A stretch of DNA of 64,000 nucleotides from Candidatus Heimdallarchaeota archaeon (GCA_011364965.1 RDOB01000002.1:320001-384000), one strand, 5' to 3'; counted from the first letter of the stretch, positions 18,952 through 30,943 are shown. Program-made: numbers and translations. Notes: generated by a model not told the origin, from the letters alone.

Positions 18952-19521
18952 CTAGCCCTGTCCTTCTTTTTTAAATCTTTCTTGCAAACGTTCAATAAAT
19001 GAATAATATTCTTCTTCAATGATGTCAAAGTAAATTAAAAGTGGTTCTAAGACCTGTGAGATGTTTTTTCCTTTTTTACTGCTTTTAATGCCTTCTGGTA
19101 ATGAATCGTATTCTCCTTTAAGTCTTTTCAAGGCTTCATGCATTTCGGATATCATTTCAGCATTTTCTGTATAATTTTTATCCAAAATACTGATAAACGA
19201 ATATACGGAGTCTTTTTTTTCTGAATATTCATATTTATCCTTACTTGTGCCCTTTTTGGGAGTTCGAACAAGAGTTCGCTTAATTACGCCCCAATCCTCA
19301 AGTGTTTTTAGATTACGACTAATCGTGGAAACTGTTACGTTTAATTTTTCAGCTAGATCTCCTTGCTTAAATATTGTATCATGTCCAAAAATAAAAACTG
19401 TAAATAATCTTCCAAGCATCGGATTCTCATTAAACTCATGCATTAAATCCTCAAGTAAGTTACTAGCCCGTTCTTGAAGTCTATCAAGCTCTTTTGAGTC
19501 TTCCTGTATACCTGAGCTCAT
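18952..19521 (-). CDS. GbsR/MarR-like winged-helix regulator
   Basis: 'QGDLAEKLNVTVSTISRNLKTLEDWGVI' followed by a helical C-terminal part. Confidence 0.85.
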   Translation of the reverse strand: MSSGIQEDSKELDRLQERASNLLEDLMHEFNENPMLGRLFTVFIFGHDTIFKQGDLAEKLNVTVSTISRNLKTLEDWGVIKRTLVRTPKKGTSKDKYEYSEKKDSVYSFISILDKNYTENAEMISEMHEALKRLKGEYDSLPEGIKSSKKGKNISQVLEPLLIYFDIIEEEYYSFIERLQERFKKEGQG

Positions 19522-19582
19522 GGTTTTTATTCTCCAGTAAGTTATTACATAAAACTTCTATATAAATAAAATTCTTATAAAT

Positions 19583-21643
19583 TCACTCCTGCTTTGAATA
19601 TATTATCTCTGTTTCCAATTGAAAATCTCGCGAAGAGTTTCCGATCATTAAAAAAAACCTTCCTGGTTCAATCACCCAATTGTGCACTTTTGAATCGTAA
19701 AACGCCAAATTTTTGGCTTTAATTGGAATTTCTATAGTTTTTTGCTCTTTTGAATCAATATATACCTTTTGAAACCCAATTAACTCTTTAGGAGGGCGTT
19801 TAATAGAGCATTCTAGATCTTTGGCATAAACTTGGACAACTTCAGCTCCAGCTCTTTCTCCCGCATTGAAAACTTGTATTTTCAATTTTAGTTCATCATC
19901 AATGGATTTCAATATGGTTTTATCTAGAGTAACGTCTTTAAAGACAAACTTGGAATATGTTAAACCAAAACCAAAAGGGAATAAAGGTTCAATGTCAAAT
20001 CCATCGGTATAACGATAACCAATAAATATTCCTTCTTCATAATTAACTTTAAGATTTTCTCCTGGAAAGGTTTTAGGAGATTTATGCGCAGGGGAATCTG
20101 ATAACGATTTTGGAAAAGAAATCGGTAATTTTCCTGATGGATTCACGTCTCCAAATAAAATATTTGCTATTGCTCTTCCTGCATGCATGCCTGAATACCA
20201 TGCTTCAAGTACAACTGGAACATCTTCCAACCAATCATCCATTCCAATTGGACTACCGTTAATCAAGACAACAATCGTTTTGGGATTTTTCTTTGCAGTT
20301 GATTTTATGAGTTGTACTTGTGATTCTGGCAGTTCTAATCGAATTCTATCTGTTCCTTCACTATCGTTTCCAAACGGAATCACATCTTTCCTTTTATTAC
20401 GTCTAATCATACTCTGATTTGTATAATGATCCAAACCAGCAAATACTATAGCTACATCAGCGATGCTAGAGTCATTTAACAACTGAATTTTATCTTTACA
20501 CCTTTCTTTTAATCCCTGAAAAGGAGTGATTTCATAAGGAGGTTTTACAGCACTACTTCCACCTGCTAATAATTTCCCAAATTTTCTATTCAAGTTTGGA
20601 CCCAATACAGCAATTTTCGTAAGGGTAGAGAAGTTTAATGGTAATAAGCTACCAGTATTCTTTAATAAAACAATACCATCTTCTGCCATAGTTTGAGAAA
20701 GTCTTTGATGATCAGCTGTATTTCTTTTACTAGGTAATTGGATTTTCTTATTCTCAAATAATCCAACATAGGTCATAACAGTTAAAAAACGTATAATTAA
20801 TTTATTGATTTGTGAATCAGTTATTTTACCAGCTGAATATAATTGCTTTAAGAATTCTGGTTTATACTTATTTGCACTGGGCATTTCAAGAGACAGACCA
20901 GCCTCAATACAATCCTCTGGAGAGACCGGAGGATCACTACGAGCAAGGGAATACCAATCGGAAACAACAAAACCACTAAAACCCCATTTTGCCCATAAAA
21001 GATCCTCTAGCAGCTCTTTTGATTCAAAAATGTATTTCCCATTAACTTTATTGTATGAAGTCATTATCATCCATGGATTTGCTTCCAAAATTGTTTCCCT
21101 AAATGCACGAAGATAGATTTCATGGAGAGTTCTTTCGTCAATTTCAGCACTTATAGTAAAGCGATTCGTTTCTTGGTTGTTCGCGACATAGTGTTTTATA
21201 CATGCTGCGACTTTCTGACTCTGAACGCCTTTGACATAAGAAACCGCCAACTCCTTTGTTAAGAATGGATCTTCACTGAAATATTCAAAAGTTCTTCCAT
21301 TTAAAGGAGATCGATCAATATTGATACTGGGAGCGAGAATTGCATGTCTCCCAACTGCTCTTGCTTCCTCTCCAGCTGCTTTGCCGTATTCTTTAGCAAG
21401 ATCTGGATTCCATGTGGCAGCAAGACAAATACCACCCGGAAATCTCGTATTTTTTCGAAAAAAGCTTGAGTGCATAGATATACCGAAAGGTCCATCTGTC
21501 ATTCTAAAGCGTTTGATACCCAATCGTTTAATGGGATTTGTGTCAAAAAATCGGCTCCCAGAACATAATTTGATTTTTTCATCTAATGTTAATTGATTGA
21601 GTAAGTCATTAATATGTTTCTGTTGTTCATTTGATAGTTTCAT
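19583..21643 (-). CDS. Glycoside hydrolase family 3 beta-glucosidase
   Basis: TDGPFG, GRTFEYFSEDP, KHYVAN, VVSDW, VNPSGKLP and an Fn3-like C-terminus. Confidence 0.95.
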   Translation of the reverse strand: MKLSNEQQKHINDLLNQLTLDEKIKLCSGSRFFDTNPIKRLGIKRFRMTDGPFGISMHSSFFRKNTRFPGGICLAATWNPDLAKEYGKAAGEEARAVGRHAILAPSINIDRSPLNGRTFEYFSEDPFLTKELAVSYVKGVQSQKVAACIKHYVANNQETNRFTISAEIDERTLHEIYLRAFRETILEANPWMIMTSYNKVNGKYIFESKELLEDLLWAKWGFSGFVVSDWYSLARSDPPVSPEDCIEAGLSLEMPSANKYKPEFLKQLYSAGKITDSQINKLIIRFLTVMTYVGLFENKKIQLPSKRNTADHQRLSQTMAEDGIVLLKNTGSLLPLNFSTLTKIAVLGPNLNRKFGKLLAGGSSAVKPPYEITPFQGLKERCKDKIQLLNDSSIADVAIVFAGLDHYTNQSMIRRNKRKDVIPFGNDSEGTDRIRLELPESQVQLIKSTAKKNPKTIVVLINGSPIGMDDWLEDVPVVLEAWYSGMHAGRAIANILFGDVNPSGKLPISFPKSLSDSPAHKSPKTFPGENLKVNYEEGIFIGYRYTDGFDIEPLFPFGFGLTYSKFVFKDVTLDKTILKSIDDELKLKIQVFNAGERAGAEVVQVYAKDLECSIKRPPKELIGFQKVYIDSKEQKTIEIPIKAKNLAFYDSKVHNWVIEPGRFFLMIGNSSRDFQLETEIIYSKQE

Positions 21644-21982: not shown

Positions 21983-24727
21983 ATGAAACAATATTGGCAC
22001 GCAAAATCTTTGAATTCGGTTATTGATCTTTTGGAAACAGATGATGAACGTGGTCTTTCCTCCTCTGAGGCTCTAAAACGACTCGAGACGTACGGACCTA
22101 ATGAATTAGAAAAAACTAAGAAGAAACATCCAATTTTTTTATTTTTAGACCAATTTACTGATCCCTTAGTTATCATACTTCTAGTTGCATTGGTAATTAG
22201 TGTGACGATTGGCGTTTTTTCCCCTCATGAGGAAGATAAGCTTGAATATTTCGTTGATGCAGTAGCTATTACAGTTATTGTACTCTTTAATGCCTTATTT
22301 GGTTTCATACAAGAATATAAAGCCGAGAAATCAATCGAAGCATTAAAATCAATGGCTGCTCCATTTACTACAGTTGTAAGAGATGGCAAAAAGGACAGAA
22401 TAGAAGCGAGATTTCTCGTGCCTGGAGATATTATTCAAATAGAAGAAGGTGACAAAGTTCCAGCAGATGCTCGCCTTATCCAAGCCCATTCTCTTAGAGT
22501 AGATGAATCTATGTTAACTGGTGAATCTTTTCCAGTAGCAAAAGAAAGAAATGCTGTATTACCAGAAAATGCATCAATTGCAGACATACGTAATACTATC
22601 TTTAGTGGTACAAATATCACAAGAGGACGAAGCTTAGCTGTGGTTATTCAAACTGGAATGAATACTGAATTTGGAAAAATTGCAAAGGGATTGATGGATG
22701 AAGATACTGAAGAAACTCCGTTGCAAAAACGACTCAAAGTACTGGGAAAATGGATTGGAATTGCAAGTCTTTCTATTTGTGCCATTATTTTCGCAATTGG
22801 GGTTATCTTAAGCCAAAATATAATCGATATGTTTATTGTTGCTGTTGGTTTAGCGGTTGCTGCGGTTCCTGAAGGATTACCAGCCGTTGTTACTCTCGCT
22901 TTAGCCCTTGGTGTTCAAAGAATGAGTCAGAAAAATGCTATTATTCGTCGTTTACCCTCCGTTGAAACCTTGGGATCAACAACTGTAATTTGCTCTGATA
23001 AAACTGGGACATTAACTCGAAATGAAATGACCGGAAGAAAGATACTCACTGTTGATGAAGAATTATCTATAAGCTCAAGCATGAAGATAAACGAGGCAGT
23101 AGAAAAGATTTTAGCAGTTGCTATAGAGTGCAATAATGCTCAACTTAAATCTAATGATTTCAAGAATGAGATAGACATTGGTGATCCAACTGAAATTGCT
23201 TTATTACGTGTAGCTAAGAAACTGGATTTTTCCACGAATTTTGAGCGGCTTTACGAAATTCCTTTTGATAGTAATTCCAAACGTATGAGTGTAGTGGTAA
23301 AAAATCCCTCTAAAAAATATTTTGTGTTCACAAAAGGAGCTCCTGACGTATTGCTTCAGATATGTGAAAACTATTATTCAAAAGGAGAAATTATGCCTTT
23401 AAATGAAAATGTTCGTCAAAATTTGGAAAAATCTGAACAGCTTCTTGCTGAAAGAGGGTATAGGATGTTAGGGATGGCGTTCAAAGAGGCATCTAAAGAA
23501 AAAGTTGAAATTTCTATTTTTTCGGAAGATACTGAACAAATAGAATCTAATTTAACTTATCTTGGAGCTATCGCGATTATGGATCCACCCCGTGAGGGAA
23601 CAAAGGAATCTATTGAGACTTGCAAGGTAGCAGGTATTCGTCCAGTCATGATTACTGGAGATCATATGAAAACTGCCCTTGCAGTGGCAAATGAAATTGG
23701 TTTGGTCGAGGATATTGATACTAAATATTCTATGGAAGGAAGTGACCTTGCTCTATTATCTGATAAAGAACTAAGAGATGCTGTAAAAACAGTGAGAGTT
23801 TTTGCTAGAGTATCTCCTGAACATAAATTAAAGTTAGTATCAGCTTTCAAAGCAAATAATCACATTGTTGCGATGACTGGTGATGGAGTTAATGATGCCC
23901 CCGCTTTAAAGAAAGCAGATATTGGAATATCTATGGGAATTTCAGGTACCGATGTATCAAAGGAAGCTTCTGATATGGTATTAGCTGATGATGATTTTTC
24001 AACAATCGTTGGAGCAATTCTTGAAGGAAGAACAATATATGATAATATGAGAAAATTCATTCTTTACTTATTATCCTGTAATGCAGGGGAAATCGCAGCT
24101 ATGTTTATCGGAATCATGATCACATCCATTTTATTCGGAGCTCCTGTATTACCTTTACTTGCGATACAAATATTATGGGTTAATCTTGCAACTGATGGAC
24201 TTCCTGCTCTCGCCTTGGGTGTAGACCCTCCTGATTCTGATGTAATGATAAGAAAACCACGAGATCCAGATGAATCAATACTTACTAAAAAGGCCTTTTA
24301 CTTTATTCTATATTCTGGAATCTTAATTGGCGTTGGCACGTTATTCATATTCTTTTGGTATCTTACTTTTTCTACTGCCACAACTGAAATCGAAAGGATT
24401 ATGGAAGCTCGAACGGCAGCATTTACATTACTAGTAACCTTCCAGATGATTATGGCATTAAATATTCGTAAAGAGGAGCACTCACTCTTTGGCAAGGAAT
24501 TTATCCGTAATCCATACCTGCTTTTAGCAATTATCAGTTCAATGTTTTTCCATAGCTTAATACTATATTTACCGTTGTTAAATCCGATCTTTGAAACGGT
24601 ACCTTTAAGTCTAACAGATTGGTTATTTGTTCTCATTATTGGGAGTACTCTAATTTTTATAGATGAAAGTCGTACATTTTTATCAAAAAGAGTTCCAGCT
24701 TTGAAAAGTATTGCTGGTTATTGGTAG
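21983..24727 (+). CDS. P2A-type (SERCA-like) Ca2+-transporting P-type ATPase
   Basis: TGES, PEGL, DKTGTLT, KGAPD, TGDGVND, SCNAGE, WVNLATDGLP. Confidence 0.93.
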   Translation: MKQYWHAKSLNSVIDLLETDDERGLSSSEALKRLETYGPNELEKTKKKHPIFLFLDQFTDPLVIILLVALVISVTIGVFSPHEEDKLEYFVDAVAITVIVLFNALFGFIQEYKAEKSIEALKSMAAPFTTVVRDGKKDRIEARFLVPGDIIQIEEGDKVPADARLIQAHSLRVDESMLTGESFPVAKERNAVLPENASIADIRNTIFSGTNITRGRSLAVVIQTGMNTEFGKIAKGLMDEDTEETPLQKRLKVLGKWIGIASLSICAIIFAIGVILSQNIIDMFIVAVGLAVAAVPEGLPAVVTLALALGVQRMSQKNAIIRRLPSVETLGSTTVICSDKTGTLTRNEMTGRKILTVDEELSISSSMKINEAVEKILAVAIECNNAQLKSNDFKNEIDIGDPTEIALLRVAKKLDFSTNFERLYEIPFDSNSKRMSVVVKNPSKKYFVFTKGAPDVLLQICENYYSKGEIMPLNENVRQNLEKSEQLLAERGYRMLGMAFKEASKEKVEISIFSEDTEQIESNLTYLGAIAIMDPPREGTKESIETCKVAGIRPVMITGDHMKTALAVANEIGLVEDIDTKYSMEGSDLALLSDKELRDAVKTVRVFARVSPEHKLKLVSAFKANNHIVAMTGDGVNDAPALKKADIGISMGISGTDVSKEASDMVLADDDFSTIVGAILEGRTIYDNMRKFILYLLSCNAGEIAAMFIGIMITSILFGAPVLPLLAIQILWVNLATDGLPALALGVDPPDSDVMIRKPRDPDESILTKKAFYFILYSGILIGVGTLFIFFWYLTFSTATTEIERIMEARTAAFTLLVTFQMIMALNIRKEEHSLFGKEFIRNPYLLLAIISSMFFHSLILYLPLLNPIFETVPLSLTDWLFVLIIGSTLIFIDESRTFLSKRVPALKSIAGYW

Positions 24728-24881
24728 AGTTTCCAAAAAGAATCCCAGACATGTATAAAAAGAATAATTAATCATAATAGTTCATAGCAATAAGCAAGGT
24801 TTAATAAAAAAGAAGGAACTTCACCTTAAAAAGAAATAATCGTCTTTAAATAATTACCGAGAGTGGAATAGAGGACATATA

Positions 24882-26360
24882 ATGGTATCTATGACTCGGA
24901 TCAAAATTTCAAGGGTTTTTAATGCAGCCACTTTCTTCATTTTCACCTTTATCCAGATGATATTTGTTTCATGGATTTCAATAAGCCAAACTTATAAAGA
25001 ATCAGCCTTTCCACCAATTAAAGTTCTCGGTTTTTATGTTGCATTCAATCCTTTCGCTGATTTACGTTTCACTGCCTTTCTGGTTCTTTTAACGGCTGGA
25101 TTGCAAGTTTTACTACTTGCCTTACTTGTGAATATTGTTTTCTCTAATAAGAATATGGTTCAAATCTACCCTGAACCCCTTTATGGTCCTGCATATGCTC
25201 CTGAGGAAGCGCCGTTAGTCGATAGAACTCTTGGTCTTGTTCAACGCGTTGCGAGCAAAGCTCGTATAAAAGTAACAAAAGTATTCGTTTATCGTAAAGC
25301 AGTTCCAAATGCTTTTAGCTTAGATTTATTACCTATCCCAATTTTTAGAAAACCTTACTTAGTATTAAACACAAATGTATTAGAAATCTTAAATGATAAG
25401 GAAATTGAATCTGTAATTGCACATGAACTTGCTCATGTTAAAAATGGTGATAGTTTTATTCGATTAGTTCTTTCAATACCTAGACTTTTTCTTAATCTTG
25501 CTTATCTTTTTATTTACCTTCAGATTCTTACTGGAATTCTTGATGCTGTCTTTGACTCATTGGATATAGGAGCAGCTGTTGAACGTTTAATCTTCCTAGG
25601 ACTGATATATATCTTTATTGCTTTTATCACAAAATTCACAGTGCATTTTTTGTTTGCAGCTAATCATAAAGCAGAATTTCTTGCTGATTATTTTGCTGCC
25701 ACTCTAGTTGGCTCCGATATCCTCATAAATTCACTGATCCATTTGGGCCAACGCAGTGAAGCGATGCAGGTTCTGAATCGTGAAATAGAATGGCTTCAGG
25801 GCTTATCGGGAGAAAAAAAACTTTCAACTACGTTATTGAGAAATATTTACCAAAAATTTCCTAAAACTCAGCTCGATGAAGATATTGCAAGAGAAACAGC
25901 TCCAAAATTGTTCTTAGAAGAGAAATTGGAGGAATTAGTTTTTTTCTATGGAATTGAATTGGATAGGCAAATTCGAAATCAGCTTATTGAGCGCGCTGTC
26001 CCCTCGCTTTTGGAAAAAAGAGAGCAATATTACGATACGCTCAAAGATGAAGAATCAGACATCAAACCTAGTATATTAAAAGAAAAGACTATCGACTGGC
26101 GAAGATTCGATGCTGATAAGAACCAATACCTAGAAGAGGATGAAATTGAATCTTTGATTTTTACATTACTCGCGCAACCAGATAAAATGGTTTTTGAACA
26201 TGAACTTTTCCAAGGAACAGAAAAAGATCAGGATCACCCAGGTTTCCGTGTACGGATCCTAAAAATTTTCCAAGTATTTCATCCTGATAAATATGAACAA
26301 ATTGAATCTCAAATTCTCCAACAAGCTGAAAAGCAAGTTATATTAGAAAATCCAGTTTAA
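24882..26360 (+). CDS. M48/HtpX-family membrane zinc protease with an inserted EF-hand-containing domain
   Basis: PNAF, HELAH, AEFLAD and HPGFRVRI. EF-hand loop DADKNQYLEEDE at 26109-26144. Confidence 0.88.
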   Translation: MVSMTRIKISRVFNAATFFIFTFIQMIFVSWISISQTYKESAFPPIKVLGFYVAFNPFADLRFTAFLVLLTAGLQVLLLALLVNIVFSNKNMVQIYPEPLYGPAYAPEEAPLVDRTLGLVQRVASKARIKVTKVFVYRKAVPNAFSLDLLPIPIFRKPYLVLNTNVLEILNDKEIESVIAHELAHVKNGDSFIRLVLSIPRLFLNLAYLFIYLQILTGILDAVFDSLDIGAAVERLIFLGLIYIFIAFITKFTVHFLFAANHKAEFLADYFAATLVGSDILINSLIHLGQRSEAMQVLNREIEWLQGLSGEKKLSTTLLRNIYQKFPKTQLDEDIARETAPKLFLEEKLEELVFFYGIELDRQIRNQLIERAVPSLLEKREQYYDTLKDEESDIKPSILKEKTIDWRRFDADKNQYLEEDEIESLIFTLLAQPDKMVFEHELFQGTEKDQDHPGFRVRILKIFQVFHPDKYEQIESQILQQAEKQVILENPV

Positions 26361-27382
26361 TCAAATAGAACTCTTTCTAACATTAAGGGGATATTTCTTT
26401 CATTAGATGGCAGATAGAACAATTTAATATTAGGAAGTTTCCGTAGTTTGCCAAATAAAGGAGTAGTTAATTGCAAAGCTTGCCTTTTAGGAGTAATTAT
26501 AATTCTAACGTCTTGCATTTTGCTTAAAAGTGGAATAAAATCGAATCCTGTTGTAGCTAGCAAATCCGATATTAAAACAAGCGTTTTTTTACGAGAAATG
26601 ACTTTTTTAAACTCTTTATTAGTTGCTTTCAAAGCTGTATAAATATTGGTCTTTCCTCCAGAACGAATATTAATCAGCTTTTGAATGATTTCCTCACTGG
26701 TCATGAAGTGATCTGAATAGCTTTTTAAAATCCTTGGATCTGTATCAAATCCAATTATGGCCATATCACGGATATCCATGATCATGGAAAAAAGAATTGA
26801 GGCCAAGATGATTAATCTTAGATGGGTCAATACCGAATGGCTATGATCAATTAAAAGGATGACACTCTTCTCCTTCCGTTTTCTTTCATAGCATATTACA
26901 TGTTTATACATGAAATATGGGTCACCTGATCCTAGGTAATTCGCTATCGTGTGTTCAAGATGCCAAGACTTGCCTGGAACATAAGGGACCTTTCTGGGGT
27001 ATTTAGATCGGTCAATAGATTTTAATATCCTTTCTGCATGCCGAAATAATTTAGGGATTATAAGAGAGATTAGAACTTGTTTTTCATGTTCGGGAAAAAA
27101 TTCTTTTATCTGAAAAATTAAAGATGTCGATTCAAGTATAAATTCAGCGCTGGAAAAGTCTAATTGAAGAACTTCAGCAACTGCCCGTGGATGTTTTTCC
27201 GCAATTACTTCAATTGCTCTTAAATTTCTACTTGTAATGGCCTTCTTTGTAAATTCTAACGCAGAATTTTCATCTAGTTTTTGTCTTAAATCGAACTCGT
27301 ATATTCGTTCTAGAAGCATGATATCTAGGCCGTTAGAGGATTGTATTGAGATAGATGCGGGACTAATGTCCCGCTTTATCAA
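26357..27382 (-). CDS. vWA domain protein (MoxR partner)
   Basis: MIDAS residues DHSHS...GGKTNI...ISD; overlaps the MoxR stop codon. Confidence 0.88.
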   Translation of the reverse strand: MIKRDISPASISIQSSNGLDIMLLERIYEFDLRQKLDENSALEFTKKAITSRNLRAIEVIAEKHPRAVAEVLQLDFSSAEFILESTSLIFQIKEFFPEHEKQVLISLIIPKLFRHAERILKSIDRSKYPRKVPYVPGKSWHLEHTIANYLGSGDPYFMYKHVICYERKRKEKSVILLIDHSHSVLTHLRLIILASILFSMIMDIRDMAIIGFDTDPRILKSYSDHFMTSEEIIQKLINIRSGGKTNIYTALKATNKEFKKVISRKKTLVLISDLLATTGFDFIPLLSKMQDVRIIITPKRQALQLTTPLFGKLRKLPNIKLFYLPSNERNIPLMLERVLFD

Positions 27383-28230
27383 TTTTTTGAAATATTTGGG
27401 AAAAAAACTGATTCTGCTATTTCAAAAAGGCATTCTTCAATGGTTTTATCAATATCTGGATGTAATTTTACCTTACCTGAATATACAGAATAAATAGCAG
27501 CAAGAAATGTATCACGAGATTTCGGTAAATCCTTTAAAAGATTAGTCAATTGAATAGCGGCCCTAATACTCGCTCCAGAGTCAAAATTGGTATTTTTTCT
27601 TGTTTTCTCTGTGAATTCAACTACCTTCTGTATCAAAGGAAGATCTTTACATCCAGTCCTTAATTTCACAATATCTTCAGCTTCTCCCCCTGATTTATGA
27701 AATAATCTAATGAGAATACATCGATCAAAAAATGCTTCTGGAAGTGGATTTGTTCCTACATATTCAGAAGGATTTAGGGTAAAGATCGAATAAAAATGGT
27801 CATGAGCTTTAACTTCTCCATATTGCGGGATAAAGATATTCCTTTCGTCCATTGCTGCCAGAACTCCGTTCATACTTTCGCTAGGAGCTCTATTTACCTC
27901 ATTGAAGAAAAATAACCCACCGTTGTTCATTGCGTTTGTTAATGGGCCGTGAATAAAGCTTTTCTCGGTGAAACCAAGTTTCATAACTAATGGCGGATCA
28001 AACCATCCCCGACAATGAGTTATGGTTAGATTTTCATCCCCATCTACCCTATAAAAAGGTCTTTTTAATGCTTTAGCGACTGTTTTAGCTAATTCCGTTT
28101 TCCCCGTTCCTGATTCTCCTTCGATTACGACAGGAATATGGTTATTAATTGCTGCTAGTATTATTTTGATTTCCGAATTGAGGCCTAAGAGATTTTTTGC
28201 ACATTCTTGTATAATTAAATCGAAATTCAT
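27379..28230 (-). CDS. MoxR-family AAA+ ATPase
   Basis: GESGTGKT, FFFNEVNR, TLNP, LPEAFFDR, SIRAAI. Confidence 0.92.
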   Translation of the reverse strand: MNFDLIIQECAKNLLGLNSEIKIILAAINNHIPVVIEGESGTGKTELAKTVAKALKRPFYRVDGDENLTITHCRGWFDPPLVMKLGFTEKSFIHGPLTNAMNNGGLFFFNEVNRAPSESMNGVLAAMDERNIFIPQYGEVKAHDHFYSIFTLNPSEYVGTNPLPEAFFDRCILIRLFHKSGGEAEDIVKLRTGCKDLPLIQKVVEFTEKTRKNTNFDSGASIRAAIQLTNLLKDLPKSRDTFLAAIYSVYSGKVKLHPDIDKTIEECLFEIAESVFFPNISKN

Positions 28231-28275
28231 ATTCTTTAACCTTAAAAATCGGTATAAGAAGATTCTTAGAGTGTT

Positions 28276-30216
28276 TCAAATCTCAATTAGAACTTTTGTT
28301 AAAGTAACTTTTCCAGTATCTTCATCAAAAGTTAACCAACCTTCTTCCTCTAATTCTTTAACTAATCGTGCTGCAAATACAAGTTGAATAGCAACTGACT
28401 TTGCTAATTCAGTTATAGAAGCTTGTTGAACTTCTTGTAATACAAATAAAAGGGCATATTTTGGATTTTTTGCTAGATTAATTTTGAGAGTTTCGACAGC
28501 TGATTGAAGATTTTCCGATTTTGATTCCAATCGCATTTTTTCTTTTTCTAGGAGATTCATTACATTATTCTTATCATTCAATGCTGTTTCGACTTCTTTC
28601 AGTCTTTTTTCTAGTCTTTTATTCTCAGCATTTGAATTATCAAGATGAGACTGAAGACTTTGAATCTGTGTTGCGAAATCGTCACGTTCTCGTTCTATTT
28701 GAGACTGGAATGCTATTGATTCAGTTGCTTCCTTTGCAATTTCAGTTTGTCTTTGTCTAAATAGCTCTAAATCTTTACGAGATTCTTCTAGTTCTCTATT
28801 CTTTAATTGTAATTGGTTCTCAAAATCCGTGATTATTGATTTCTGCTTTTCGAAAGAAATATTCAAATTGGCTAATTCATCTCTCAGTTGATTTCTATCC
28901 TCTTCCAAGGAGGTAATCCTCTCATCTTTCCCCATCAGGGATTTTGTTTTATCCTCCAATTGCATTTGAATAGAACGTTTTTCTCTTTTAAGATTCTCGG
29001 AAATTTCCTCGTGTTCTTTTTGCTGGAGGCTGAGTTTTTCAATTTCTGCTGATAAATCGGAATTTTGTTGTTTAATTCTTGATAATTCTCGTTTAAAGTC
29101 CTCTATTTCCTTCTGTATAGCTAATTTTTCTTCTTTCAGAGATGCAACATATTCTGTGAGATCTTGGGAACCTTTTTCTCTAGCCTCTACTTTCAAAGAT
29201 AGTTCTCGAACTTCATCCTCCTTTCTTTCCAAGACCTTTTTGGTATCATCTAATTCTTCCCTAAGTGTGACTGCTTGCTGACTAGTTTCTGCAGAATCCA
29301 ATAATAAATCCTCATTTTCCTCCTCGAGTTGTTTTATACGTTCAGATAATTCATCATTAACATTTATTAAATTACTCATATCAGTATTAAGCTGTTTAAG
29401 TTGACTTTTAAGAGAATTAAGGTCTTCTTTGAACTTTTCTTTTTGAATATTGATTACCTGAAGATTTTCCTCTCTAATTGATTCTATCTCAAGGCGCAGC
29501 TTTTCATTAGCTTCTTTCAGTTTAATATTGTCTTCTGCACTACTTGTGAGAACTTGAACTTCCGCTTTCAAGTTTTCTATTTCCATATCGCGATCTCCCA
29601 AAACACTTTGCAATTCCTCAACCTCAAGACGAGTTGACACAAGTGCATTTCCCACAGTTTCAAATTCAGCGTCCATTTTTTCTCTATCATGTCGGGCTTG
29701 CTTCGCTTCTCGTAATGCTTGATCTAATTCTTCCTGAAGCCTATTAATATTTTCAAGTTGATCTTCTACTTTATCAGAGCTAATACCAGACTGATTTTGC
29801 AATTTTGCAATTATTCCTTCTTTTTCTTGTAATTGAATCTGAAGATCATCTAGTTGAAGTTGAATTGGTTCAATCTCCGCTGCTCTTCTTCTCCATTCGT
29901 CTATTTCATTTTTTAATTGATCGAGCTCGTCGTGAGTAACGACTATTGCTCCGCTGGAGTCGAGTTCTTCTATATTATCAACACCTTTTAACCCGATTTT
30001 GGAAAATTCCGTGTGAGCTTCCTTATTGAACGATTGCATTTTCCTTTTAAATGTTTCAATCAAAGCCTCAATTTCTGTAAGGGAATAATGCATTTTAGGG
30101 TTTCTTTGTAGATTCTGGACTATTGATTTCGCTTCAGAAGAAATCTCACGCTCTAATCGACGTTCTTGCTCTGCAATATTTTGAATAAATACTAATTTTG
30201 GGTTTTTTCTAGACAA
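28276..30216 (-). CDS. Long coiled-coil protein with a C-terminal winged-helix domain
   Basis: About 480 aa of heptad repeats, then 'ASITELAKSVAIQLVFAARLVKELEEEGWLTFD'. Confidence 0.85.
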   Translation of the reverse strand: MSRKNPKLVFIQNIAEQERRLEREISSEAKSIVQNLQRNPKMHYSLTEIEALIETFKRKMQSFNKEAHTEFSKIGLKGVDNIEELDSSGAIVVTHDELDQLKNEIDEWRRRAAEIEPIQLQLDDLQIQLQEKEGIIAKLQNQSGISSDKVEDQLENINRLQEELDQALREAKQARHDREKMDAEFETVGNALVSTRLEVEELQSVLGDRDMEIENLKAEVQVLTSSAEDNIKLKEANEKLRLEIESIREENLQVINIQKEKFKEDLNSLKSQLKQLNTDMSNLINVNDELSERIKQLEEENEDLLLDSAETSQQAVTLREELDDTKKVLERKEDEVRELSLKVEAREKGSQDLTEYVASLKEEKLAIQKEIEDFKRELSRIKQQNSDLSAEIEKLSLQQKEHEEISENLKREKRSIQMQLEDKTKSLMGKDERITSLEEDRNQLRDELANLNISFEKQKSIITDFENQLQLKNRELEESRKDLELFRQRQTEIAKEATESIAFQSQIERERDDFATQIQSLQSHLDNSNAENKRLEKRLKEVETALNDKNNVMNLLEKEKMRLESKSENLQSAVETLKINLAKNPKYALLFVLQEVQQASITELAKSVAIQLVFAARLVKELEEEGWLTFDEDTGKVTLTKVLIEI

Positions 30217-30346
30217 GATTGATTTTCGCCCCTAGATTACTTATTCGCCTCGGTTGGATAAAAACTTCTTTCACTCTCTACTTTGGAGTATTCAGAATTT
30301 TGCTAATTGTTGAGACATTCTAGTTTGGATCAAGTTATATTTTTTG

Positions 30347-30943
30347 TTACTCTTCTTCTTCTTCTAGAGTATCAAGTTTTAGGTGTTGAAGATTCTGAGT
30401 TAATGATCCAATCTCCTTATCAAATTGTTGGAAACGTCCTTGATATAAGTTGTTTAATGCAAGATCAAGATGAGATGTTTTACTTTCTGGTTCATATCCA
30501 ACTATTGTCAATAATTTAAAATTTTGTTGTTGCGTGTCTTTTAAAAATTTTGGTAAAGAATTTAAATCTTTGTTAACTGCTTCAAGAACCTTTAAAGCAC
30601 TCTTTTCACCTGTTGTGAGATTTTGTGTGAATGATTCGACTTGAGGTAGTAGAACTGTCCTCAATTGATATCTTACTTCATCCTTTGAGATATTCTTATC
30701 AGATGCAAGATTTTCAGCCCATTCCAATATTGTTTCAAAGTTGCGAATGCTGTTCTTTTCAAGTTTGATCCAATTAAGTAATGTCTCCAGAGCGTCCTCG
30801 ACAGTTACGAGTTGTTTATATAGCTCATCTCTATTTTCAAGTGCATAATCCCGTAGATCCTCTAAAATTTTAAATAATTCGATTGAGCTATGTTGATATT
30901 CTGTTTTATTGGGTTTTTCCTCGGTATCTGGTGTCATTTCCAT
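30347..30943 (-). CDS. Hypothetical all-helical protein
   Basis: 198-aa ORF with a GGAG SD and amphipathic helices. Confidence 0.75.
   Translation of the reverse strand: MEMTPDTEEKPNKTEYQHSSIELFKILEDLRDYALENRDELYKQLVTVEDALETLLNWIKLEKNSIRNFETILEWAENLASDKNISKDEVRYQLRTVLLPQVESFTQNLTTGEKSALKVLEAVNKDLNSLPKFLKDTQQQNFKLLTIVGYEPESKTSHLDLALNNLYQGRFQQFDKEIGSLTQNLQHLKLDTLEEEEE

Follow-up and report, generated by a model that had tools for sequence, protein, structure and literature searches.

We analysed a 64,000-nt window of DNA from a Candidatus Heimdallarchaeota archaeon (GCA_011364965.1 RDOB01000002.1:320001-384000), an Asgard genome, with a GC content of 34% in the window and near-identical proteins in the database that are named Hodarchaeales or Heimdallarchaeota. 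Positions 21,983 to 26,360 contain two genes on the same strand, a Ca2+-transporting P-type ATPase and, separated from it by an AT-rich spacer, an integral-membrane zinc metalloprotease of the M48 (HtpX-like) family. The protease carries a long helical insert between its third zinc ligand and its C-terminal HPx4R motif, and an EF-hand-type loop is located within this insert (Table 1). An earlier annotation of the window, hereafter the preliminary description, had read the two genes as a candidate calcium-signalling module.

Table 1. Features of the pump and protease genes, with positions counted from the first nucleotide of the window and residues numbered within the protease
Feature	Position	Strand	Basis or remark
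P2A-type Ca2+-transporting P-type ATPase (pump), 914 aa	21983-24727	+	TIGR01116, motifs, PDB matches
AT-rich spacer between pump and protease, 154 nt	24728-24881	+	Lies between the two open reading frames
M48 (HtpX-like) integral-membrane zinc metalloprotease, 492 aa	24882-26360	+	Pfam, motifs, topology
HELAH zinc-binding/catalytic motif, residues 181-185 (H181, E182, H185)	25422-25436	+	
AEFLAD, residues 264-269 (E265, third Zn ligand; D269, equivalent of BepA D205)	25671-25688	+	
Family-specific helical insert, residues 270-451	25689-26234	+	About 140 residues beyond classical M48
EF-hand-type 12-residue loop, D410-E421 (DADKNQYLEEDE)	26109-26144	+	Conservation, profile, model
HPGFRVR (HPx4R motif), residues 452-458	26235-26255	+	Starts 42 residues past loop position 1

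The protease scored 49.3 bits on the Pfam family Peptidase_M48 (PF01435; cut-off 20.3, E 6.8e-13), and its motifs were retained in an alignment of 63 orthologues, which was composed of Hodarchaeales, other Heimdall-class families and Thorarchaeota and reached down to 23-27% identity. HELAH was present in all 62 orthologues covering that position, while E265 of AEFLAD and D269, as well as H452, P453 and R458 of the HPx4R motif, were invariant in 63/63. Four hydrophobic segments (residues about 14-36, 60-90, 193-224 and 227-260) and a positive N-terminus predict an N-in topology, which would put the insert and the two catalytic parts on the cytoplasmic side. The best NCBIfam matches were HtpX models, at 56.7 bits versus a cut-off of 245 (NF003965), and all eight HtpX equivalog models remained far under their cut-offs. 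Identities in the database fell from at least 60% within the protease's own clade directly to no more than 32% for ordinary HtpX proteins. On these scores, the protease is a member of M48, yet not an HtpX equivalog. Structure comparison of the full-length model with Foldseek gave ZMPSTE24 and Ste24 as top matches, both weak (E 5e-3 or weaker, template modelling score about 0.27). With HtpX (MEROPS M48B), which functions in membrane-protein quality control in bacteria and archaea, the protease shares the N-terminal transmembrane hairpin, the cytoplasmic HExxH domain, two further hydrophobic segments, the Glu that serves as third ligand in ExxxD and the C-terminal HPx4R, whereas the helical insert of about 140 residues with the EF-hand, located between ExxxD and HPx4R, is a feature of the archaeal protease.

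The preliminary description had estimated about 185 aa between the zinc ligand of AEFLAD and the HPxxxxR motif, far more than in HtpX, and this was close to the 187 residues counted here from E265 to H452, versus 45 residues from E201 to H246 in BepA (bioRxiv 10.64898/2026.07.01.735768). An AlphaFold2 model of residues 270-492, built from a domain alignment, had a predicted local distance difference test (pLDDT) score of 93.8. A Foldseek search of this high-confidence insert model against the PDB returned nothing at E <= 0.001, and a wide search with VIA-align gave a best Z of 5.5, to generic helical hairpins. The Cbl-TKB domain, which contains an EF-hand, appeared in weak and non-significant rows, and none of the known folds could be attributed to the insert as a whole.

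The EF-hand loop had been placed in the preliminary description at the position given in Table 1, with D1, D3, N5, a hydrophobic residue at position 8, E12 and Q at position 6, and both the coordinates and the residues were found to be exact. The entering helix terminates in WRRF, with F409 just ahead of the loop, and DADKNQYLEEDE-I fits every position of the PROSITE pattern PS00018. The pattern match alone was rejected as proof of an EF-hand, as the genome contains 3 such matches in 2040 open reading frames (ORFs) of at least 150 aa, a count near the 2.35 expected by chance from composition. The EF-hand is instead held to be real because of its conservation and of the profile searches. PS00018 was satisfied by 38 of the 63 orthologues, and the entropies of loop positions 1, 3, 5, 8 and 12 in this alignment were 0.23, 0.67, 1.43, 0.0 and 0.12 bits (consensus D, D/N, D/N/S, L and E), with 2.9, 3.0, 2.8 and 3.2 bits at positions 2, 4, 6 and 10. 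As judged from this alignment, the metal-ligand positions of the loop are under strong purifying selection. When the insert profile was compared with all PDB sequences, the highest match was calbindin D28k (5e-9 summed over repeats, best single stretch E 0.01), followed by secretagogin and calmodulin; all 60 matches listed were EF-hand proteins, and every alignment fell within profile positions 114-170, corresponding to the EF-hand segment and taking in the WRxFD lead-in. Apart from the EF-hand models, no Pfam family was matched by more than two members.

In the AlphaFold2 domain model, short entering helices at residues 396-401 and 406-409 are followed by the loop at 410-418 and an exiting helix at 419-431, whose start at loop position 10 is that seen in canonical EF-hands. 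The full-length model agrees on the helix-loop-helix at lower confidence. Pattern, loop conservation and structural model were among the checks suggested in the preliminary description, and all three came out in favour of the loop, although the pattern counts for little by itself. Conservation, profiles and predicted structure taken together, the insert contains a genuine EF-hand-type helix-loop-helix. It has in common with canonical EF-hands such as those of calbindin D28k and calmodulin the 12-residue loop with D1, D3, N/S/D5, a hydrophobic position 8 and E12, and shares with calbindin an aromatic residue ahead of the loop (WRRFD in the protease, WRKYD in calbindin), but differs from them in being single, unpaired and located inside an enzyme, with Gly6 replaced and with scores under the Pfam gathering thresholds.

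Orthologues of the protease were detected in 23/24 genomes of its own order, and the C-terminal domain in 101 of the 400 Asgard genomes searched, with carriers in the home genus, the sister family, three further families belonging to that class and the greater part of a second class, which corresponds to Thorarchaeota by database name. The statement in the preliminary description that no archaeal system like this had been described should thus not be read as rarity, since the family also has relatives in bacteria. An exhaustive hidden Markov model search of 1.84 billion representatives found the C-terminal domain in only 218 clusters, and the inspected HExxH-bearing matches were mostly 390-500 aa in length, with the insert domain at the C-terminus. 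The bacterial branch of the family comes from metagenome-assembled genomes (MAGs) of Planctomycetaceae, Pirellulaceae, Thermoguttaceae, Verrucomicrobiota and Armatimonadetes. The Asgard insert is homologous along its whole length to the bacterial inserts (hhalign 99.4%, E 5e-21), and the bacterial branch has a fully canonical loop, RIRWRRFDRDGDGRLxxxEI. At loci L117-L122, from Planctomycetota, Verrucomicrobiota and Armatimonadota MAGs, M48 proteases of 390-420 aa contain the same insert, with DRDGDGRLxxxE located 39 residues before HPx4R. Among 97 full-length representatives of the family, 47 have a 12-residue EF-type loop, which starts 33-45 residues (mode 41) before HPx4R, and 29 of these 47 have Gly6, including the bacterial relatives examined. 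A sizeable bacterial-looking subgroup (P0133-P0219) has a loop that is one residue longer (e.g. FDTHIKDNRLDEKEL) and contains fewer acidic residues, which may represent a degenerate EF-hand or an altered specificity.

The position of the loop relative to HPx4R is of interest in view of the periplasmic M48 protease BepA of E. coli, where HPx4R lies at the centre of an autoinhibitory plug. The His of this motif can coordinate the catalytic zinc as fourth ligand and block water, the Asp of ExxxD and the Arg of HPx4R keep the plug in place, and the authors of that study proposed the plug to be general to M48 enzymes (bioRxiv 10.64898/2026.07.01.735768). The H-E-H-E zinc site, the Asp of ExxxD and the His, Pro and Arg of HPx4R are common to BepA and the archaeal protease, with D269, H452, P453 and R458 as the plug-equivalent residues of the latter. 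BepA is however a soluble protein, fused to tetratricopeptide repeats and activated at the β-barrel assembly machinery (BAM) complex by lid insertion, and does not contain an EF-hand.

Since the loop is located about 41 residues before the HPx4R plug motif, control of the protease by Ca2+ can reasonably be suggested. On binding Ca2+ or a different divalent cation, the loop would change the angle of the exiting helix, and this shift would reposition the HPx4R plug and move the balance between the plugged and the open state. Cytoplasmic Ca2+ may in this way tune the protease through the plug balance, in the direction of either activation or inhibition, while the neighbouring pump would act on the protease only via its general effect on cytosolic Ca2+. 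Given the near-fixed spacing of loop and plug, an exiting helix and plug moved by a cation would be the most economical mechanism. We therefore favour, with a probability of roughly 0.55, the reading that the protease represents a distinct and undescribed M48 (HtpX-like) subfamily that is modulated by Ca2+ (or a divalent cation), and that the neighbouring pump is incidental. The further proposal, that a widespread M48 subfamily uses its built-in EF-hand as a Ca2+ sensor which mechanically releases or locks the HPx4R plug, would extend to Hodarchaeales, other Heimdall-class archaea, Thorarchaeota, Planctomycetota, Verrucomicrobiota and Armatimonadota, and is put forward here as a tentative one. 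Calpains are Ca2+-dependent cysteine proteases in which activity is set by Ca2+ binding to EF-hands, and they share only this concept with the archaeal protease; they are non-homologous, of unrelated catalytic type and fold, and soluble, with paired EF-hands (a penta-EF-hand) in a separate domain.

Several observations weigh against Ca2+ modulation through the loop and plug. Gly6 is absent, with Gln in its place in the protease, and position 6 is unconstrained in the archaeal sequences (Q, R, Y, F, L, S, K), so that the loop may depart from the canonical conformation, since bulky residues at this position fall outside the set allowed by PROSITE. Canonical EF-hands work in pairs, and no second loop was found in the sequence of the protease, where only one segment matches EF-hand profiles, nor was a pairing helix-loop-helix present in the model. 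The Pfam EF-hand models gave 13-16 bits on the protease (E 0.016-0.11), with cut-offs of 25-30, and only 5-7 of 47 orthologues gave E values of 0.01 or less. In about half of the family representatives, the loop is either replaced by a 13-residue variant or not recognisable at all, which indicates that Ca2+ binding is not obligatory for the fold. Finally, the plug mechanism has been demonstrated for BepA only and is discussed for BlaR1, but not for HtpX-like enzymes.

Part of these observations may be explained by loss of metal binding from the EF-hand in the home genus upon replacement of Gly6, with the motif being kept as a helix-loop-helix scaffold or as a surface for protein interaction. 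Such a loss would agree with the residues at position 6 in the genus, which are Q, Y, R, S or F and never Gly, with the sub-threshold Pfam scores and with the variant or missing loops elsewhere in the family. We consider it highly improbable, as D1, D/N3, S/N/D5, L8, E/D9 and E12 are strictly selected in the genus, which is hard to explain without a role as ligands. PROSITE moreover permits Q, R, K, N, H or D at position 6, and PS00018 is still matched by 15 of the 21 genus sequences.

Alternatively, the loop may be a constitutive structural site for a divalent cation, which stabilises the insert without acting as a switch, the protease then being regulated by substrate or membrane stress, like HtpX. 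Lone EF-hand-like or DxDxDG loops are common as structural sites in prokaryotic enzymes, and the loop described here is unpaired and set in a well-packed helical domain (pLDDT 94). A search with PF13499 also detected no classical EF-hand-pair protein in the genome, which hence gives no sign of a wider Ca2+-signalling toolkit. Such a structural site would however be cytoplasmic according to the predicted topology, where free Ca2+ is low if the cell is like others, and would thus need an unusually high affinity or Mg2+. Furthermore, the constant spacing between loop and plug in very distant lineages suggests functional coupling rather than stabilisation, and we regard a purely structural role as unlikely when set against modulation by the cation.

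No paper that joins HtpX or M48 with an EF-hand was found in the literature searched, and a published survey in which eukaryotic EF-hand proteins and SERCA were derived from bacteria named no Asgard EF-hand effector (PMC7016017). Conservation of the EF-hand-bearing M48 protease in a quarter of the sampled Asgard genomes is relevant to calcium signalling in the time before eukaryotes. If the proposal of a built-in Ca2+ sensor acting on the plug is true, the protease would represent a cytoplasmic device for Ca2+-to-proteolysis signalling in the closest archaeal relatives of eukaryotes, as well as the first case in which a defined ligand triggers release of the plug in an HtpX-like enzyme. The switching-on of M48 proteases (HtpX, OMA1, ZMPSTE24, BlaR1 and BepA) is an active question, and a natural variant with a loop of ligand-binding type about 41 residues from the plug provides a directly testable model.

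The gene upstream of the protease was correctly described before as a SERCA-like pump with PEGL, NAGE and NLATD motifs. Every Pfam module of P-type ATPases was found in the pump, which scored 722 bits on the SERCA-type Ca-ATPase equivalog TIGR01116 and passed its cut-off of 703.4, and was narrowly under that of the PMR1-type model TIGR01522 (764.5 bits, cut-off 798.3). The DKTGT phosphorylation site (CSDKTGT) and the Ca2+ ligand motifs VPEGLP (M4), CNAGEI (M5) and WVNLATDGLP (M6) are present, with the equivalents of SERCA E309, N768, E771, N796, T799 and D800 all kept. The closest relatives in the PDB are human SPCA1, Listeria LMCA1 and SERCA1/2, which align from end to end (E about 1e-170 to 1e-175). 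The pump groups with the prokaryotic P2A Ca2+-ATPases (Listeria LMCA1 and Bacillus YloB), SPCA and SERCA, and is probably an ordinary Ca2+ exporter. In M8, the sequence VTFQMIMALN (window 24380-24410, pump residues about 800-810) has a Gln where SPCA1 aligns Asp, at what we take to be the position of the SERCA1 site-I ligand E908 (Glu). With this Glu of SERCA replaced by Gln, the pump may move a single Ca2+ in each cycle, as LMCA1 and PMCA do.

The spacer between pump and protease does not contain an oligo-T terminator run. A single TATA-like TTTAAATA, a possible promoter of the protease's own, is located 37 nt ahead of the protease ATG, but the box is not kept across the genus. Comparison of spacers showed Shine-Dalgarno-like GGTG or GAGG motifs ahead of many gene starts.

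The arrangement of the two genes is what suggested a dedicated two-gene calcium-signalling unit, in which a rise in Ca2+ triggers the protease and the co-expressed pump resets this trigger. A stretch of 154 nt without an oligo-T terminator separates the two genes, which share a strand, and both proteins would act on cytosolic Ca2+. In addition, the protease gene is immediately preceded by a co-oriented orthologue of the pump (66-70% identity) in 21/21 protease-bearing genomes of one GTDB genus, although the proteins are only 60-70% identical. In that genus, however, the complete block of pump, M48 protease, VWA, MoxR, coiled-coil and helical ORF genes is collinear, with a GTPase upstream in most genomes. 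The pump-protease pair is thus no better conserved than unrelated neighbours, and the restriction of the adjacency to one genus points to a single evolutionary event. At 42 Asgard loci outside the genus (2 from the sister family, 13 from three other Heimdall-class families and 27 from Thorarchaeota), neither a P-type ATPase nor any of the other neighbour genes of the window was found within about 7 kb on either side of the protease orthologue, and a P-type ATPase was likewise absent near the relatives of the protease at 6/6 bacterial loci. In the two sister-family genomes, the pump orthologue is found on a different contig and is not followed by an M48 gene, and the neighbours that do recur outside the genus are TldD/PmbA peptidases and Ras-like GTPases.

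Pump adjacency was dismissed as evidence of function after this synteny control, as it is genus-level synteny and the pump an incidental neighbour. Conservation of the gene pair across Asgard genomes, which the preliminary description had named as a check, failed at 42/42 loci beyond the genus. Of the Ca2+-gated protease reset by the neighbouring pump that was proposed there, Ca2+ control remains a reasonable suggestion from the position of the loop, while the pump module is unsupported, and we think it very unlikely that the two genes form a dedicated unit. This negative result is of importance in its own right, as the 'pump plus sensor' module goes back to an accident of gene order at the level of one genus and should not be propagated.

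A TldD/PmbA metallopeptidase pair was located within about 1.5-5 kb of the protease orthologue in 24 of the 42 loci outside the genus, in two classes (loci L081-L116; e.g. L112:4281-7090 and L081:10065-12466). These genes are downstream and on the same strand in one Heimdall-class family, and upstream and divergent in most Thorarchaeota loci; their recurrence may reflect a shared proteolysis context. The genome studied here has four TldD/PmbA pairs, none of which is near the window. In about nine Thorarchaeota loci (L103-L106, L110 and L113-L115; e.g. L113:6545-7123), the gene immediately preceding the protease, in the same orientation, encodes a small GTPase of the Ras family (Pfam Ras, E 1e-37).

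The PF13499 search for EF-hand-pair proteins concerned the same genome as the window. On contig C15 of genome G000, a 2219-aa ORF on the minus strand contains several DxDxDGxLDxxE motifs (DTDYDGLLDGEEL, DTDGDLILDGAEL and DSDRDGLLDGAEW), which resemble secreted Ca2+-binding repeats of the thrombospondin type 3 kind.

Upstream of the pump in the window, a helix-turn-helix/MarR-like gene and a GH3 glycosidase gene are present on the minus strand (18952-21643), where they separate the pump from a DRG-like GTPase. They have the appearance of a local insertion, since the GTPase is the immediate upstream neighbour of the pump in most genomes of the genus. Downstream of the protease and convergent with it, positions 26357-30943 encode a VWA protein, a MoxR-type AAA protein (AAA_5), a 646-aa coiled-coil protein with a MarR-like winged helix-turn-helix, and a 198-aa ORF. 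This block is collinear from the VWA gene to the 198-aa ORF in every genus genome whose contig reaches it, and the stop codon of the VWA gene overlaps that of the protease by 4 bp.

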